From: a bacterium
Lineage (GTDB): Bacteria > JACRDZ01 > JAQUKH01
Assembly (NCBI GenBank): GCA_028719205.1
Contig: JAQUKH010000006.1
Span: 62,001-92,853, forward strand
DNA length: 30,853 nt
Reading direction: 5' to 3'
How positions within the stretch are numbered: the stretch's first letter is position 1; each line of letters opens with the position of its first letter. Shown here in pieces: positions 20,813 to 27,501 of the stretch. A model generated the notes under the pieces. The model made no database searches. It saw nothing but the letters and a program-made list of their open reading frames with translations, and was not told the origin of the DNA. Made by a program: the position numbers and the translations under genes.

Positions 20813-20825
20813 GAGCACCAATTTG

Positions 20826-20860
20826 TTAACAATTGACAATTAAGCATTAACAATTTGCAA
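20826..20860 (+). repeat. Degenerate heptamer tandem repeat (5 units)
   Basis: TTAACAA TTGACAA TTAAGCA TTAACAA TTTGCAA. Confidence 0.55.
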
Positions 20861-20890
20861 TTTAAAAAATAGACATGTTCTTTTTATAAC

Positions 20891-20919
20891 TTGACAACAT
20901 TCAAATATTAAAATACAAT
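20891..20919 (+). promoter_or_regulatory. Near-consensus sigma-70 promoter upstream of the fibre locus
   Basis: TTGACA-17 nt-TACAAT. Confidence 0.65.
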
Positions 20920-20991
20920 ATAACCTATTGTTAATTATTTTAAGTTAGATTTAACTATATAACTGTAGAATAAAGTAGATATTTTTGAATT

Positions 20992-21042
20992 ATGAATTGG
21001 ACATTCTGGCCGGAAATCCAAAGGTATTTAAAAGCATCTTAA
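20992..21042 (+). other. Possible 16-aa upstream ORF MNWTFWPEIQRYLKAS
   Basis: ATG..TAA ending in the 5' arm of the hairpin; no clear RBS. Confidence 0.25.
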
Positions 21043-21079
21043 ATCGGTAAGTATTTTATCGATTTTAGATGCTTTTTTT
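21030..21079 (+). terminator. Terminator-like hairpin in the leader
   Basis: AAAAGCATCTTAAATCGGTAA-GTATT-TTATCGATTTTAGATGCTTTT followed by a T run. Confidence 0.7.
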
Positions 21080-21142
21080 ATTTTGTCATATAAAGTTAAC
21101 CTGTAAGAAATAGCAGGTGGTTAGGGAAAAACAGGGTGGTAA

Positions 21143-21296
21143 AATAAATTTTAATATTTCACTCCTGCGACGCAGGAAAATAAAAGGAGGTTTCCTTAAT
21201 GAAAAGTTTTAAAAAATATAAAATTTGGGTAGTGATGTTGAGCGTGTTTTTGTTGAGTTCAATATTAGGTTCGCAGGCTAAGGCGGGGTGGGTGGA
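21143..21296 (+). repeat. 154-bp direct repeat, copy 1 (5' UTR + signal-peptide coding region)
   Basis: Ungapped match to 25019-25172, 9 mismatches by manual count. Confidence 0.9.
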
Positions 21297-22395
21297 ATTG
21301 AGTGGGAAGATTTATTATGATGGTGGCAATGTTGGCATCGGGACGACGGAGCCGACGGCGAAACTTGATGTGCGTGGCTATATTGCTACGGATGTGGTCA
21401 ATTCATTCCAAGCTGGCGATCCCCTTGAGTTACAATATTCTATTGCGGGAGATGTCATAGTATCTGGTTCAGATAGCAATCTTCAAGTTCAAGGTACGGG
21501 TAATTCATCTTTTACAGGCAATCTCGGCATTGGGATAACGATTCCGGCGTCTAAACTCCATGTTAATGGTGGTCAAACATATTTAGTATATAATCATGCA
21601 AGTTCTCCAGCTCTTGATGTTCGTAATGCGGGTGGTGGGGCAGCAGCTGTATTTGGATTAGGTGGCGGTAATGTAGGCATCGGGACGGCGAATCCGGGTC
21701 ACAAATTAATGGTTATGGGAACCACTAGTGAGTGGATGTCGCGAGTTACTACTGATTGGACATTATCTACTGGTTCCGGACTTATGCTGGGAGTGGGAGG
21801 AAATACAGGAAATACTTTTTCAGAAATCAGGGCCATGTCATCTGGAGTTAATGCATGGAATAATTTAGTGTTACAATCAGGTGGTGGCAATGTTGGTATC
21901 GGGACGACGAGTCCGGCATCTAAACTCCATGTTAATGGTGGTCAAACATATTTAGTATATGATCATGCAAGTTCTGCTGCTCTTGATGTTCGTAATGCGG
22001 GTGGTGGGCCAGTAGCTATATTTGGATTAAATGGCGGCAATGTCGGTATCGGGACGTCGAATCCAACAGCTAGATTAGCTGTTAACGGCACAATAAAGGC
22101 AAAAGAAGTTATAGTTAGCACAACAGCGGCAGATTGGCCGGATGTTGTTTTTAAAGATGATTATGAATTAATGAAATTAAACGATTTGGAACAAAACATT
22201 AAAGAAAACGGCCATTTACCTAATATTCCTTCAGCTGGCGAAGTTGCTGAAAATGGAGTGAGTGTTGGTGAAATGCAGTCTAAACTTTTACAGAAAGTTG
22301 AAGAATTGACCCTTTATGTAATAGATCAGAATAAAAGAATAGCTTTATTGGAAAAAGAAAACGAATCGCTGAAAAAGAGCTATTCTGTAAAATAG
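21199..22395 (+). CDS. Secreted tail-fibre-like protein, paralogue 1 (GNVGIGT modules + S74-chaperone-like C-terminus)
   Basis: Signal peptide ending AKA; five G-N-V/L-G-I-G motifs; C-terminal WPDVVF...HLPNIPSA...LLQKVEELTLY coiled coil; AGGAGG RBS. Confidence 0.8.
   Translation: MKSFKKYKIWVVMLSVFLLSSILGSQAKAGWVELSGKIYYDGGNVGIGTTEPTAKLDVRGYIATDVVNSFQAGDPLELQYSIAGDVIVSGSDSNLQVQGTGNSSFTGNLGIGITIPASKLHVNGGQTYLVYNHASSPALDVRNAGGGAAAVFGLGGGNVGIGTANPGHKLMVMGTTSEWMSRVTTDWTLSTGSGLMLGVGGNTGNTFSEIRAMSSGVNAWNNLVLQSGGGNVGIGTTSPASKLHVNGGQTYLVYDHASSAALDVRNAGGGPVAIFGLNGGNVGIGTSNPTARLAVNGTIKAKEVIVSTTAADWPDVVFKDDYELMKLNDLEQNIKENGHLPNIPSAGEVAENGVSVGEMQSKLLQKVEELTLYVIDQNKRIALLEKENESLKKSYSVK
21517..22035 (+). 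repeat. Intragenic 150-bp module duplicated non-tandemly (21517-21666 and 21886-22035)
   Basis: PASKLHVNGGQTYLVY.HASS.ALDVRNAGGG occurs twice; about 16 mismatches in 150 nt by manual count. Confidence 0.9.
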
Positions 22396-22464
22396 ACTAT
22401 TAATTTTAGAAAAGTAGAAAGTTAAAATATTATTAATTAACATTGTTAATAAAAGGGGGGCGTA

Positions 22465-25020
22465 ATGTTTAAAAAATTAAAGATTTTTTCTTTGTTTATG
22501 TGTATATTTTGCTTTATTTTTATTGTTTCGTTAGAGTCACTTTCTTATGCAACATTGGATATCACATATAAATTAAATCCTGAGGTTGTTTTATCTGCTC
22601 GAAATATAAATGACAATTTAACCAATCCTAGCTTTTTTACTGGTGATCACCTACGATCTTTGTTTCAAGATGGTTATTACCATAGCGTTCTATTTTTTTC
22701 TATGGATAATACTCCAATAAGTCCTGAAGATATTGCACAAAACAATGGTGAGCCTCAAGCTATTTTTATTAGTAGAGATATTAATCTTCCAGAAGGAGAT
22801 TATCTTGCTAGATTTTATCTTTATGTTGATGGAAATGGTTTAAGTAATTGCTCTGATTGGGATCCGCCTGGCGCGTTTTATAGTGGCTGGGAATGTAATG
22901 GTGGTAAAATTTGGAGTGTTAATTATAATAATTTAAATATGTTTTGGCCAGAGGTGAGAATATTAGCTCAACTTTTAGGGTCTGATGTTTTAGATGTTTT
23001 TAGATTAGAAGTTTGGCATAAAGATACTAATGGTGCAGAAACAATAATTGGTTCGGATACAATTCCTATCCGATATTTACTACAGCCTGAAATTAGTGAT
23101 TTTAACGGAGATGATAAACTCTCAAAAATAGACTTGCGATTTTCAACTGGAGGATATCAAAATGGATCTTTTATTTTAAAGGTAAAATGGTTAACTAAAC
23201 AAGGTGATGCTTATAATAGAATAATTAATTTCCCTGGTATGCCTACTACTTGGAATGATCGTGGATATGGCTGGAATGGAGGTATGGAAAAAGTTGAGCT
23301 TTATCAGGCGCCTGGAATAACAAATTTAACAGTAAATGATGGTTTAATGACAGATCTGAATAAAAAGGCGAACTACATTGATAGTGACATTAAAGCAGAG
23401 CATCTTGATAATGGGCAAATTATTAAAATACCTGGTAGTGGTGCTAATCACGATGAAGGAGACGCGGCACTGTGGACTGGTGTCTATGCTGCAACGCAGG
23501 CAATGAAATATAAGACAACAAGAGATCCTGTTGCAAAAGAAAATATGGAAAATGCATTAAGAGCATTAAACAGATTAGTTGATTATGGTGTGAATCATGG
23601 TAACCCTGGTTATGTTCCGAGATACATCGATTATAACCGTGTAGCCTATTCAGGTAACTCTAGCAAAGATACATATACAGGTGTAATGTTTGGATACGCG
23701 ATGGCTTATGATCAAATCGAAGATATTTCGTTAAAAAATGATGTTCAAACAAATGTGAAAATAATAGTTAAACATTTTATTGACCATAACTTTCATTTTG
23801 TAGACCAGGCATCAGGGACAAATGTTGACCTATCACCTTATATGTCTTATTATGCGTTAAGTAATTATGGAATTCTTCAGCCATTAAACTTTGCGGTCTA
23901 TCTTATTTCTACTTTTAGTCAGGGATATTTTGTGCCAGGTTTTTTAAATATAAATAATATGTTCAAATATCTGTATGAATCCCAGGCGTTTGTTTTCTAC
24001 GATAGTAATTTATATAGTTTTGTTGAGAACAATACTATATATAATGACGACTTAAGTAACAAAAAATTCCCTTCTCCTGATAGTTTATTAGGATTAATGA
24101 TGTTAAAAACCGCAGATACAATAATTCCTGACAGCACAATAACATTAGCTAATCCAATAATAATTGATAATATATCCGTATCAAATCCAACATATCGGGA
24201 ATACTATGAAAATAATTTAAGTAATAATTACCAGTTCCTGCCATGGGTCAAAGTAACAAGTGGTTATACAGATTATAATTTAATGAAAAGCATATTCACA
24301 GAAAAGAAATTAGATTTATTGAAGGCTTGCGGGGAAACACATCATTTATCTTGGTTTGCGGCATATACTCTAATGACGCTAGAAAATAATAGTGCTATAA
24401 AAAATGAATATAAAAATTTACTAAAGTATATGTGGCTGCCATATAGTGATGAATATAATTCAATGTATAATTTTATGAATTTTGCGTGTGATCCTAATTC
24501 TACATTTTCTCAAAAAGGCAGATTAGATGGTATTTGGTCATTAAAGGATTTCCCTTATGATAAAATTGGAACAGGGCTTAGAACTTTTCCACTTACAGAA
24601 CAAGGGATTCAAATAAGCGAGGAAGATCTTGGCGGTATAATAGGATATCAGAGTGATACCTCTAAAATTGTTTTGGCATCACCTGTGCCAATGCTTTTCA
24701 GATACAGAAATGCTTTTTGTTGGCAGCAGAGTCCGCGAGATTTTGCGCATGATGACGCTGGTACCAAATACTCCGGATTAGATTATTTATTTGCCTACTG
24801 GTTAGGACGAAGTAATAATATTATCACTGTTCCTCAAAATTCTGAAATAACAAATCAAGAACTTAATGGATTGTATGAAGGTGTTAATGAAATTACAATA
24901 GGGCCAAATGTTACTGTTGAAAATAATGCAAATGTTACTGTAAAAGCAGGGGATCGTATTGTAATTAAACCTTATTTTATTGCAAAAGAAGGTTCTTATT
25001 TACATTTATGTATTGAATAA
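22465..25020 (+). CDS. Large secreted hypothetical protein; helical (alpha/alpha-barrel-like) central/C-terminal region and a short beta-rich tail
   Basis: Hydrophobic N-terminal signal; DAALWTGVY, SSKDTYTG, GLDYLFAYWLGR; tail ITIGPNVTVENNANVTVKAGDRIVIKPYFIAKEGS. The fold is inferred. Confidence 0.6.
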   Translation: MFKKLKIFSLFMCIFCFIFIVSLESLSYATLDITYKLNPEVVLSARNINDNLTNPSFFTGDHLRSLFQDGYYHSVLFFSMDNTPISPEDIAQNNGEPQAIFISRDINLPEGDYLARFYLYVDGNGLSNCSDWDPPGAFYSGWECNGGKIWSVNYNNLNMFWPEVRILAQLLGSDVLDVFRLEVWHKDTNGAETIIGSDTIPIRYLLQPEISDFNGDDKLSKIDLRFSTGGYQNGSFILKVKWLTKQGDAYNRIINFPGMPTTWNDRGYGWNGGMEKVELYQAPGITNLTVNDGLMTDLNKKANYIDSDIKAEHLDNGQIIKIPGSGANHDEGDAALWTGVYAATQAMKYKTTRDPVAKENMENALRALNRLVDYGVNHGNPGYVPRYIDYNRVAYSGNSSKDTYTGVMFGYAMAYDQIEDISLKNDVQTNVKIIVKHFIDHNFHFVDQASGTNVDLSPYMSYYALSNYGILQPLNFAVYLISTFSQGYFVPGFLNINNMFKYLYESQAFVFYDSNLYSFVENNTIYNDDLSNKKFPSPDSLLGLMMLKTADTIIPDSTITLANPIIIDNISVSNPTYREYYENNLSNNYQFLPWVKVTSGYTDYNLMKSIFTEKKLDLLKACGETHHLSWFAAYTLMTLENNSAIKNEYKNLLKYMWLPYSDEYNSMYNFMNFACDPNSTFSQKGRLDGIWSLKDFPYDKIGTGLRTFPLTEQGIQISEEDLGGIIGYQSDTSKIVLASPVPMLFRYRNAFCWQQSPRDFAHDDAGTKYSGLDYLFAYWLGRSNNIITVPQNSEITNQELNGLYEGVNEITIGPNVTVENNANVTVKAGDRIVIKPYFIAKEGSYLHLCIE

Positions 25021-25172
25021 TAAATTTTAATATTTTACTCCTGCAATGCAGGAGAATAAAAGGAGGTTTCCTTAATGAAAAGTTTTAAAAAATGTAAAAT
25101 TTGGATAGTGATGTTGAACATGTTTTTGTTGAGTTCAATATTAGGTTCGCAGGCGAAGGCGGGGTGGGTGGA
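25019..25172 (+). repeat. 154-bp direct repeat, copy 2
   Basis: Matches 21143-21296 at an offset of 3876. Confidence 0.9.
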
Positions 25173-26274
25173 TTCAACAGGATGTACTTATTATATTGGA
25201 GGCTATGCCGGTATTGGGACGACGAGTCCTGCAAGGCAATTGGAAATTTCTGCCGCTGGCGGTTCAAGATTAAGAATTACGAGTACCATTGATAATAATG
25301 CTGATTTAGAGTTTTACACGAATGGAATTAGTCGAGCAATTGTTGAGGGAAATTCCATTGGCATGGCTTTGGGAACCATAGGCGCATTGCCTACGATGTT
25401 TGTTACTAACAATTCCGAAAAAATGAGAATTGACAGCACCGGAAAAGTTGGTATCGGGACGACGAGTCCGGCAAGGCAATTGGAAATTTCTGCCGCTGGC
25501 GGTTCAAGATTAAGAATTACGAGCACCATTGATAATAATGCTGATATAGAGTTTTACACGAATGGAATTAATCGGGCAATTGTTGAGGGAAATGCCAATG
25601 GCATGGCTTTGGGAACCATAGGCGCATTGCCTACGATGTTTGTCACTAACAATTCCGTAAAAATGATAATTGACAGCACCGGCAATGTTGGTATCGGGAC
25701 GGCGAATCCAGAAAGGCAATTGGAAATTTCTGCTGCTGGCGGTTCAAGATTAAGAATTACGAGCACTATTGATAATAATGCTGATGTAGAGTTTTACACG
25801 AATGGAATTAATCGGGCAATTATTGAGGGAAATTCCATTGGCATGGCTTTGGGAACCATAGGTGCATTGCCTACGATGTTTGTTACTAACAATTCCGAAA
25901 AAATGAGAATTGATAGCTCCGGCAACGTCGGCATCGGGACGACTAATCCAACAGCTAAATTAGCAGTCAGAGGTACAATAAAAGCTACAGAATTAGTTGT
26001 TCTTGCGGATAATCCAACCAATTGGCCTGACCACGTTTTTAAAGCTGACTATAACCTAATGAAACTGGATGACCTCGAAGGTAACATTAAAGAAAACGGC
26101 CATTTACCTAATATTCCTTCAGCCAGCGAGGTTGCTGAAAATGGAGTGAGCGTTGGTGAAATGCAGTCTAAACTTTTGCAGAAAGTTGAAGAGTTGACGT
26201 TGTATGTAATTGAGCAAAATAAAGAGATTAGTGTGTTGAAAAAAGAACTTGCGATGGTTAAACAAGAAAAATAA
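25075..26274 (+). CDS. Secreted tail-fibre-like protein, paralogue 2
   Basis: Same signal peptide and C-terminal block as 21199-22395; four GIGT motifs bounding three 80-aa repeats. Confidence 0.8.
   Translation: MKSFKKCKIWIVMLNMFLLSSILGSQAKAGWVDSTGCTYYIGGYAGIGTTSPARQLEISAAGGSRLRITSTIDNNADLEFYTNGISRAIVEGNSIGMALGTIGALPTMFVTNNSEKMRIDSTGKVGIGTTSPARQLEISAAGGSRLRITSTIDNNADIEFYTNGINRAIVEGNANGMALGTIGALPTMFVTNNSVKMIIDSTGNVGIGTANPERQLEISAAGGSRLRITSTIDNNADVEFYTNGINRAIIEGNSIGMALGTIGALPTMFVTNNSEKMRIDSSGNVGIGTTNPTAKLAVRGTIKATELVVLADNPTNWPDHVFKADYNLMKLDDLEGNIKENGHLPNIPSASEVAENGVSVGEMQSKLLQKVEELTLYVIEQNKEISVLKKELAMVKQEK
25201..25920 (+). repeat. Three tandem 240-bp (80-aa) intragenic repeats
   Basis: Units start at 25201, 25441 and 25681 and are near-identical at nucleotide level. 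Confidence 0.95.
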
Positions 26275-26286
26275 GAGAATTGTTTT

Positions 26287-26341
26287 CTCCTTTTGCCCCC
26301 TCTTTTTTTAAAGAGGGGGTAGGGGGAGTTTCTTCTTTCTT
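26287..26341 (+). terminator. Long hairpin (terminator or REP-like) closing the fibre locus
   Basis: CTCCTTTTGCCCCCTCTTT-TTTT-AAAGAGGGGGTAGGGGGAG followed by a T-rich tract. Confidence 0.6.
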
Positions 26342-26398
26342 GCTGGTTATATTTCTCACCTCAAGTATCCTAAAATTTGCAACTATTTATAAATAAAC

Positions 26399-26434
26399 AA
26401 TGTAATTGAAATTAGGCGGCAATTACATTATAAT
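26399..26434 (+). promoter_or_regulatory. Sigma-70 promoter with an overlapping 10-bp inverted repeat
   Basis: TTGAAA(26406)-17 nt-TATAAT(26429); AATGTAATTG-N11-CAATTACATT. Confidence 0.55.
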
Positions 26435-26496
26435 ATATACAATTTTTCAATTAATTTAAGGAAATAAAAGTACTTTTTATAAAGAAATAATCAGTA

Positions 26497-27501
26497 ATGA
26501 AGAGATTGAAGTTAATAATTTTATTATTTTTAATATGTTTCCTGCAATTCAATAATGTTCTTTTTGCTGCTTTTGCCGACAACGCCTTTGCTTATTGCAG
26601 GCTTAATCTTGAGAAAAGCGGGAATCAGGATATTTTGGGTTTGGTAAATGATATTTTACAAAAAAGCCCGGAGAGCTCTTTAAAATATGATGCTATTTTA
26701 AAGGCTGTTTCTATAGTTTCTATTAAAGATATTAAAGGTTACGTGTTCCCTGAGAATAAAAACGGCCAACTGGATTATTTAGTAATTATTGATTTTTCTG
26801 ATAAATTTTCCATGGAGGTTGGAGGAAGAACAATTGAGTTTGAGATTAAGGATAAAGACAGCCTTGCGGCCGCGAGAATGGCTGCTGTGGAGAAATTGTT
26901 AAAGGAATCTTTGGGCGGGGACGCGAAATTAGGATCAATAGAGATCCTTCAAAATAAAATATTTTTTAACGAGGAAAAAGAAAATCACGGGGAATTATCT
27001 TCCTTTGTGACTATGCCCGGCAAGGTTATCCTGGCAAGCAGTAAGATATTGATCAGGGGATTTTTGAAAGAAGGTTTTATCAGCGGAGAAAAGATCGAGA
27101 GGTTTAGTGAAATTGTTAAAAAAGTACCTTTGCAAAAAGGAGGAGTTATATTTATTGATAATAAAAACGGGGATATTACGAAATTTGCCATAAAAATAGC
27201 GGCAAAAAAGAATGTTCAGGTGCCTGATATCTGGACACAGATAACAATGGCAGGTTTTTCTTTCGAGCAGGTAAACCCTGAAAAAATAAAAGCTAATTTA
27301 ACAGTTCAGGCTCCAAAAAAATTAAACGAGACAGTTGAAAAACAGATACAAACTCTAACAGCATATGAGGATCTGAAAATAAAAAAAGAAAACGATCCGC
27401 AAAATAATTATTTGTTTATTATGGCCGATTTTATTTGTAATAAGGATGTTATAGATAAATTGATTGGTGTGGATACCGGCGTTGTGAGAGGGCAAAAATG
27501 A
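26497..27501 (+). CDS. Secreted hypothetical protein
   Basis: 334-aa ORF with a signal peptide; ATGA overlap with rfbD. Confidence 0.7.
   Translation: MKRLKLIILLFLICFLQFNNVLFAAFADNAFAYCRLNLEKSGNQDILGLVNDILQKSPESSLKYDAILKAVSIVSIKDIKGYVFPENKNGQLDYLVIIDFSDKFSMEVGGRTIEFEIKDKDSLAAARMAAVEKLLKESLGGDAKLGSIEILQNKIFFNEEKENHGELSSFVTMPGKVILASSKILIRGFLKEGFISGEKIERFSEIVKKVPLQKGGVIFIDNKNGDITKFAIKIAAKKNVQVPDIWTQITMAGFSFEQVNPEKIKANLTVQAPKKLNETVEKQIQTLTAYEDLKIKKENDPQNNYLFIMADFICNKDVIDKLIGVDTGVVRGQK

Follow-up and report, generated by a model that had tools for sequence, protein, structure and literature searches.

Conserved DNA boxes at the module borders of two mosaic fibre genes as possible joints for in-frame recombination

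Introduction

Why should a short stretch of DNA be alike, even at some of its synonymous positions, at the module borders of mosaic fibre genes? This question is raised by two fibre genes in a stretch of 30,853 nucleotides (nt) from a bacterium of the GTDB lineage JACRDZ01; JAQUKH01 (GenBank assembly GCA_028719205.1, contig JAQUKH010000006.1, positions 62,001 to 92,853 of the forward strand), which as a whole is called the window. The two genes carry nine copies of a DNA box, and an earlier reading of the window's letters, hereafter the original prediction, took the fixed synonymous positions of these boxes as a sign of a DNA function, either as an in-frame recombination site or as a microhomology box for the exchange of modules. 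The binding target of a phage, or of a predatory or adhesive bacterium, is set by its fibre and tail-fibre proteins. That these proteins are mosaics is well known; how their modules are exchanged at the DNA level has been documented mainly for T-even phages. The analysis described here gives about an even chance to the reading that the box is a passive joint, at which the modules of fibre genes recombine in frame by homologous recombination and without a dedicated recombinase. If this is true, a joint conserved at the codon level would provide a testable rule for the sites of natural chimeras and a marker for exchangeable modules. Taken alone, the window offers something more modest, namely a clean case in which modules were duplicated and exchanged at a structural motif, located in an island that a sister species lacks.

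Nine boxes in two fibre genes

Both fibre genes are encoded on the + strand. Fibre gene 1 (21199..22395) encodes P0001, a protein of 398 amino acids (aa) with a putative signal peptide, five motif-led modules and a conserved helical C-terminal domain. Fibre gene 2 (25075..26274) encodes P0003 (399 aa), which has the same 5' and 3' blocks as gene 1 and a different middle consisting of three 80-aa repeats. A search with the pattern GGYATYGGGACGNCG, allowing up to two mismatches, revealed nine matches in the window, all of them on the + strand; 0.19 matches were expected from 100 shuffles, none of which reached nine. All nine boxes are in frame and lie within the two open reading frames (ORFs). 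In gene 1, box c1 (GGCATCGGGACGACG, 21334..21348) ends the shared 5' block U, the deviant copy c2 (GGCATTGGGATAACG, 21526..21540) starts block Y and c3 (GGCATCGGGACGGCG, 21676..21690) ends it, c4 (GGTATCGGGACGACG, 21895..21909) starts a second copy of Y, and c5 (GGTATCGGGACGTCG, 22045..22059) is found where this second copy ends and the shared 3' block C starts. Gene 2 contains c6 (GGTATTGGGACGACG, 25210..25224), c7 (GGTATCGGGACGACG, 25450..25464), c8 (GGTATCGGGACGGCG, 25690..25704) and c9 (GGCATCGGGACGACT, 25930..25944).

The original prediction had placed its nine junctions at these same positions, and its account of their codons agrees with the codon table: the second Gly codon of the box is GGG in 9/9 copies, the next codon is ACG in 8/9 (ATA at 21526) and the one after it is NCG in 8/9. 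In the 1382 long ORFs of this genome (2.59 Mb, 37.6% GC), GGG accounts for 20.8% of Gly and ACG for 15.9% of Thr codons, and outside the motifs the two fibre genes use GGG for 5 of 71 Gly codons. The box was not found elsewhere in the 2.59-Mb genome, and the hexamer GGGACG shows no genome-wide excess (368 copies, 387.5 expected).

The boxes encode the peptide GNVGIGT(T/A/S)xP..(K/Q)L, which opens each module of P0001 (five copies) and P0003 (four copies) and is the only feature that the middles of the two proteins have in common. An alignment of 31 family members revealed that the conserved parts are the motif and the helical C-terminal domain. Comparison with solved fibre structures (see below) identifies the module junction as a structural loop at the module borders, and hence structural reasons account for the conservation of the protein motif. 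A third fibre gene of this genome, located on contig C7 (L008:679-2130, - strand), encodes a protein of 483 aa with collagen triple-helix repeats and a C-terminal Peptidase_S74 chaperone domain.

Repeat blocks end at the boxes

In a self-comparison of positions 21000-26400, all four long blocks end in a box or within 10 nt of one. Block U, which comprises the upstream leader, the putative signal peptide and the N-terminus, is shared between 21143..21348 and 25019-25224 (+ strand, 88% identical); its end coincides with the final base of the box. Block Y (+ strand, 21517..21695 and 21886-22064, 88.8% identical) has a box at both ends. Block C, which encodes the C-terminal domain, begins 10 nt before a box (+ strand, 22035..22359 and 25920-26247, 79.5% identical). 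The fourth block is the tandem array X at 25201..25950 on the + strand, for which Tandem Repeats Finder gave a period of 240, 3.1 copies and 93% matches; in the self-comparison, 25210-25710 and 25450-25950 are 93% identical. The array has a box first and last (c6 to c9), and this order, box-X-box-X-box-X-box, is what pairing between two boxes produces. Across the junctions, the shared sides have identities of 0.72-0.97 and the opposite sides of 0.32-0.43. A small hairpin, TAGGCGCATTGCCTA, is located at 25379-25393 and 25619-25633 inside the 240-nt repeat units and is probably part of the repeat.

The block ends were also analysed in chromosomal homologues from other genomes. This set comprises 76 loci from the best 80 of 509 confirmed matches, with 232 motifs in 71 loci; one locus (L074) overlaps another (L073), and its motifs were counted there. 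Ends of internal self-similarity blocks lie within 15 nt of a motif in 85 of 333 distinct cases, compared with 27.7 expected. When the analysis is restricted to blocks with 85% identity or more, 32/101 ends are this close (8.3 expected), and without C-terminal blocks 13/38 are (3.7 expected), the latter from only 6 loci. The expectation that breakpoints between paralogous segments would map to the box was therefore borne out, by 4/4 long blocks in the window and by a three- to fourfold enrichment in independent genomes.

Codon choice at the motif in viral contigs and cellular genomes

Viral contigs were scanned with the codon-neutral degenerate pattern GGNAAYGTNGGNATHGGNACN, and the first 140 stretches, with 224 sites in 139 loci, were evaluated. 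At the third Gly of the motif, GGG is used in 29% of cases compared with 11% in the same ORFs, and the Thr codon is ACG in 40% compared with 14%. The pair GGG-ACG occurs at 46/224 sites in 32 loci, where about 1.6% is expected, and at 27/165 sites in contigs with a GC content at third codon positions (GC3) below 0.4. In these low-GC3 contigs the choices of the Gly and the Thr codon are linked (odds ratio 8.2, p 9e-8). Other codons are enriched as well: GGC at the first Gly (49% versus 21%), GGT at the second Gly, AGT at +7 (72% versus 22%), TCG at +8 (29% versus 6%) and, upstream of the motif, CGY, GAC and AGC. The window's 20-nt box itself is found in at least 133 viral stretches, and at 6/222 sites in 4 loci compared with 0.03 expected.

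The viral signal has sharp limits. The excess in GC3 is restricted to codons -2 to +6, and usage is at expectation from +9 despite the conserved Pro at +9 and Leu at +13; CCG, for example, makes up 14% at Pro +9 compared with a background of 13%. The codon excess as a whole stops between codons +8 and +9 and is confined to about 45 nt. When sites were weighted by 106 clusters of viral flanks, GGG still accounted for 23%, ACG for 36% and the pair for 15.7%. Flanks that are alike over at least 60 nt between loci were found in 9 pairs only, and all of these are one-sided. Because the excess is codon-specific, the signal appears to be that of a haplotype and not of a general GC bias, and generic GC-biased conversion as its sole cause was rejected on the same ground. 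The sharp limits and the one-sided likeness of the flanks fit a short segment with a history of its own, as recombination at a joint would give. Phage annealing recombinases and RecA act on homologous stretches about 25-50 nt long, a length that the joint segment matches.

In a scan across the domain, the pattern was found in 39 of 400 other genomes. Among the matches listed, GGG-ACG occurs by our own count at 32/143 sites in 14 genomes, and several of the listed sites repeat the window string up to the Pro codon. For 29 of these genomes an expectation was available, and GGG-ACG was found at 10/43 sites compared with 3.0 expected. In a genome of 0.8 Mb, one fibre cluster (G073:C1:745889-749061) contains three joints of the AT type (GGWAATGTGGGAATTGG.AC.) and then three of the GC type (GGCAAYGTCGGCATCGGGACG), and this neighbourhood of the two types suggests imported modules. 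We interpret the joint as occurring in a small number of DNA haplotypes that resemble GC-rich coding sequence. GC-rich genomes are the natural setting of such GC-type haplotypes. AT-rich viral contigs and this AT-rich island carry them frequently although they are foreign there, and the vertically inherited Bacteroidota family lacks them.

The recombination joint and its alternatives

A mechanism can be proposed that would connect the block ends with the codon pattern. About two thirds of the box's bases are dictated by the protein motif, so that each module border would have a short, near-identical and in-frame piece of DNA, at which general homologous recombination could cross over. Possible routes are unequal crossing-over, slipped pairing and gene conversion and, in phages, single-strand-annealing recombinases. 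Recombination of this kind could have created the 240-nt triplication in gene 2 and the duplication of Y in gene 1, as well as two genes with common 5' and 3' ends and unrelated middles. It would also keep the DNA of the joints alike, and such concerted evolution would explain both the uniform GGG-ACG in the window and the recurrence of one GC-rich-codon haplotype, independent of local codon usage, in unrelated viral contigs. Ordinary homologous recombination would be enough for all this. The data show what the motif is and where it lies in the structure, that block ends fall at boxes, the codon statistics and the island; we infer that recombination at the joint, and not codon selection, is the cause of the likeness of the DNA, and likewise which machinery would act on it.

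A wider version of this proposal is more tentative and must be called somewhat doubtful. It states that some 45 nt of DNA, from codon -6 to codon +8 relative to GNVGIGT, might serve as a handle across the whole pool of fibre genes, kept in a few GC-rich-codon haplotypes regardless of the carrier, and might allow phage or host recombinases to swap beta-helix modules among unrelated phages and bacteria. Modules with a common haplotype would stay exchangeable and would spread.

Several observations weigh against the joint. Within the window, recent descent suffices for all data. Only 1 of 7 four-fold motif columns (the third Gly) is invariant, compared with 0.3-1.5 under a neutral chain model, and boxes linked by shared blocks are 0.73-0.93 identical, which is not above their shared flanks (0.72-0.97). 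In the third fibre gene of the genome, the three motif copies use GGA, GGT and GGC at the box Gly. The chromosomal homologues have no GC3 peak at the motif: GGG makes up 15.1% at the motif and 14.5% in the same ORFs, ACG 13.8% and 15.1%, the pair GGG-ACG occurs at 5/232 motifs and GGG-ACG-NCG at 0/232, and in none of 24 loci with at least four motifs are the motif codons uniform. Among 121 canonical sites in 49 of these loci, 1 of 7098 between-locus pairs is an identical 21-mer, compared with 3.3 under the null. In the domain-wide scan, all ten GGG-ACG sites are in genes with a GC3 of at least 0.62, and none of the 17 sites with a GC3 below 0.5 has the pair. The viral sample consists of the first 140 stretches, kinship among the contigs is only partly controlled, and GGG-ACG is present in a limited number of flank clusters (20/106). 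The counts of block ends are somewhat inflated by BLAST extension through the conserved motif, and block ends at the motif could also stem from selection for intact modules. Finally, no rearrangement at the boxes was seen directly in the contigs, which were the only material. Contigs from sequencing runs contain many apparent joints, but their sides match over 18-32 nt at 85% likeness and belong to the fibre genes of other organisms, so that they provide no usable evidence either way.

The idea of a DNA function as first put forward is therefore upheld in part. The breakpoints at the box and the codon excess in viral contigs support it; the codons of the window, the chromosomal homologues and the search for a dedicated recombinase do not. 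The same division applies to the expectation that codon choice at GIGT departs from background, since the chromosomal homologues follow the background and the viral contigs strongly over-use the same codons. In the homologues, within-locus agreement between motifs with unrelated flanks is slightly raised (0.38 versus 0.32 and 0.44 versus 0.31).

The strongest alternative, although an unlikely one as the full account, is that descent alone explains the boxes. According to this explanation, they are copies of one or two recent ancestors, the block ends reflect the survival of recombinants with whole modules, the viral signal comes from related fibre genes with hypervariable flanks and motifs whose synonymous sites are unsaturated, and the DNA has no special role. 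The original prediction had cautioned that several copies are not independent, and this caveat is right and even stronger than first stated: block homology chains the nine boxes into two groups, {21334, 25210, 25450, 25690, 25930, 22045, 21676} and {21526, 21895}. Four-fold sites in the window blocks differ by 12-27% per link, and under a neutral chain a site stays unchanged over seven links with p = 0.21, or 0.045 if the two groups must agree by chance. The single invariant column of seven fits this neutral expectation. Since shared recent descent predicts the fixed GGG and ACG codons and the boxes are not better conserved than the shared flanks, these codons are not in themselves evidence of a DNA function, and that step of the original argument is unsupported. 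The missing codon signal in the chromosomal homologues also favours descent, and linkage between synonymous sites, as observed in the viral contigs, is what it predicts. However, unsaturated sites should also show at the conserved Pro +9 and Leu +13, and the viral excess ends between +8 and +9; the viral flanks are unrelated at 60 nt or more save for the nine one-sided pairs; and array X, with a box first and last, requires pairing between boxes. Boxes c4 and c7 have 27 exact bases in common despite unrelated flanks, which is the maximum for any pair of boxes; exact runs between the other pairs are 4-21 bases long.

Less probable, and in fact improbable, is selection at the codon level, in which GGG-ACG would be kept for translation speed, co-translational folding, trimer registration or a local mRNA structure. 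In keeping with this explanation, AT-rich contigs rarely use the enriched codons (background 10-12%), and these are placed at a domain border. However, the effect is absent at the 121 canonical sites of the chromosomal homologues, which encode the same protein motif, and in the third fibre gene of the genome, the enriched set mixes rare and common codons in a manner that is haplotype-like rather than site-wise, and a partner arm for a hairpin is missing from the fibre genes.

The idea that the box itself forms a hairpin was rejected, as neither fibre gene has a CCCGAT arm on the + strand. A hairpin composed of CCCGAT, a loop of 2-8 nt and ATCGGG occurs in 38 copies in the genome, e.g., at C6:27577 and C6:27603 (outside the window), C1:132599/132626 and C20:11781/11808. 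Since many of the copies have common flanks and some form tandem pairs, it is a dispersed element resembling repetitive extragenic palindromes (REP) or miniature inverted-repeat transposable elements (MITE), whose 3' arm happens to resemble the core of the box.

A dedicated site-specific system that recognizes the box for programmed rearrangement, similar to a shufflon or a cassette system, is very improbable. It would account for repeated in-frame sites with conserved DNA, which resemble recombination sites, and for a box common to many viral contigs. However, as the original prediction had already noted for recombinases, none of the 19 flanking ORFs scanned in the window encodes a recombinase, transposase, reverse transcriptase or phage protein, and a recombinase is not a regular neighbour of the fibre genes in other genomes either: of the 80 neighbouring ORFs that were scanned there, which are the largest among 190 non-fibre ORFs, one encodes an integrase. 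Moreover, the boxes are all direct repeats with no inverted partners and no silent cassettes, they vary at 5 of 7 four-fold columns and they are not more conserved than the shared flanks.

An assembly artefact is hardly credible: a chimeric join at the boxes is conceivable in a metagenome with many box-bearing fibre genes, and look-alike contigs pile up at the boxes (to a depth of as much as 1419 in the bin 25900-26123), many of them matching only about 20 nt of box, but contigs of a second assembler, probably from the same sample, cross six boxes without a difference, namely c1 and c2 (21249-21579), c3 and c4 (21562-21948), c5 (21931-22224) and c8 (25614-25764), and exact matches between boxes do not exceed 27 nt while the shared blocks are 75-95% identical and not identical. 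The copy number of the 240-nt repeat is uncertain.

The island and its middle gene

The two fibre genes and the gene between them form a cassette of about 5.7 kb (20813..26496), which separates glmS from the conserved gene that comes next. In G001, a congener, glmS (88% identical) is directly followed by the homologue of window positions 26497-27501, and no counterpart of 20813 to about 26560 is present at this place; the three-gene cassette is therefore an island that is missing in G001. The region 3' of glmS is known as a classic hotspot for insertions. No convincing terminal inverted repeats were found at the ends of the island, and it carries no mobility genes. Upstream neighbours are glmU and glmS, and downstream follow an unknown gene, rmlD, a gene for a DegT-type aminotransferase and a Wzz-like gene. 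The three genes are bracketed by a promoter-like site upstream of fibre gene 1 (20891..20919, + strand), which matches the consensus at 11 of 12 positions and is known from this match only, and by a strong terminator-like hairpin after fibre gene 2 (26287..26328, + strand; 19 pairs followed by a T run).

The middle gene (22465..25020, + strand) is orphan-like and has a GC content of 32%, compared with 37.6% in the genome. It encodes P0002, an enzyme-like protein of 851 aa with a signal-peptide-like N-terminus. A word-indexed search returned one weak relative of P0002, and an exhaustive search returned 389 remote ones that cover residues ~285-800. Of 14 relatives compared with Pfam, 13 have no family, and the fourteenth (P0128) matches FG-GAP_3, FG-GAP and PliI. 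A structural model based on an alignment of 44 sequences (mean predicted local distance difference test (pLDDT) 68, predicted template modelling score (pTM) 0.71) shows residues ~290-800 as a confidently predicted barrel of helical hairpins. Foldseek found only weak matches for this model (best E 4e-3, none at or below 1e-3), and these are mostly (alpha/alpha)6-barrel enzymes acting on sugars, such as cellobiose 2-epimerase, GH76, GH9 and GH15, which provides a lead and not an assignment. An atlas look-up with P0002 gave no lead (best score 0.75). No P0002-like gene was found next to fibre genes in the other loci. Very large secreted proteins are often encoded downstream of fibre genes in loci L009-L084, which echoes the fibre-plus-enzyme layout of the window, and Pfam matches among 80 neighbouring ORFs of fibre homologues include Sortilin-Vps10/BNR (5), SpvB with or without FG-GAP (4), type IX secretion sorting tails (6) and various peptidases and lipases.

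Relation to known fibre systems

P0001 has more than 4536 homologues at an E value of 1e-3 among 8000 candidates scored, most of which are unnamed or annotated as 'tail fiber protein' and many of which are from Bacteroidota. Searches of both congeners and of three genomes from the same phylum gave no match, and a metagenome scan returned 3 distant loci only. Pfam contains no family for P0001, P0003 has a marginal match to DUF7256, and Pfam detects no Peptidase_S74 domain in either protein; PHROG matches are the tail-fibre families 9942 and 18345. The N-terminus of both proteins is hydrophobic and ends in AKA, which by eye resembles a signal peptide. The AlphaFold monomer of P0001 is poor (pLDDT 61, pTM 0.25). 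Both proteins seem to end in a helical, coiled-coil-like domain. A literature search for GNVGIGT or GIGT in the context of tail fibres found nothing.

The closest likeness is to the mosaic adhesive trimer (MAT) fibres of Bdellovibrio bacteriovorus. A profile of the 31 family members matches the structure of Bd2133 (8ond) in the PDB with an E value of 1.3e-21, followed by the MAT fibre structures 8oml (2.5e-9), 8ojn (1.3e-8), 8ol4 (1.7e-8) and 8on4 (1.2e-5), and P0003 alone matches 8ond with 7.9e-10. In the alignment of P0003 with 8ond, the window motifs pair with SGNLGLGTAAP, TGLVGINTAAP and AGNVGIGATAP. The 8ond chain covers residues 662-1031 of Bd2133, and with the resulting shift of 661 residues, by our own arithmetic, motif 1 begins at G683 and motif 2 ends at E813. 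The published limits of the beta-helix domains are G683-E813 and N814-A907 in the part of the paper that was available (Caulton et al. 2024, PMC10769870). The same part gives the consensus of the MAT capping loops as V-G-G/N-pi-x-x-P-x-x-x-L, which in its printed form is one residue shorter than the window motif, and describes a conserved domain, rich in beta structure and about 130 aa long, that follows the signal peptide in all 21 Bdellovibrio MATs (PMC10769870). As far as these sections go, MATs resemble P0001 and P0003 in being mosaic and in the repeated GN(V/L)G(I/L)GT..P..KL at the borders of beta-helix domains; MATs are secreted, as P0001 and P0003 would be with their putative signal peptides. 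They differ in length (about 1000 aa versus about 400 aa) and in their tips, which are of the beta-sandwich, TNF-like, lectin or S74 type in MATs and apparently helical in the window proteins. The N-terminal domain of about 130 aa also seems to be absent from the latter: the first motif of P0001 begins at residue 43 and that of P0003 at about residue 44, about 17 residues after the putative signal peptide, which leaves no room for it. For this reason, P0001 and P0003 are filed here as MAT-like relatives and not as members of the Bdellovibrio set. In the sections of the MAT paper at hand, the word 'recombination' occurs in methods passages only, and hence they describe no joint at the DNA level.

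Phage fibres and spikes of the S74 type, such as the K1F endosialidase and T5 pb1, also combine the loop motif with beta-helix modules. They possess an S74 chaperone domain, which P0001 and P0003 lack and which the third fibre gene of the genome has. The antigenic variation systems pilE/pilS and vlsE as well as the shufflons recombine at conserved DNA that bounds variable cassettes; in contrast, a silent cassette array, inverted sites and a dedicated recombinase are all absent from the window.

The nearest precedent for the proposed exchange is provided by the tail-fibre adhesins gp37 and gp38 of T-even phages, in which exchanges occur in or close to conserved motifs (Tetart et al. 1996, 1998, as cited in the available part of PMC3157838). 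As described there, these adhesins have short conserved motifs between variable segments, as the window fibres do; their sequence and fold are unrelated, and they are encoded by phages and not in an island of a bacterial chromosome. We know of no report from T-even phages of a joint that is kept in a codon dialect foreign to the surrounding gene. It is this conservation of the joint at the codon level, in a dialect foreign to its carrier, that forms the new element of the present case.

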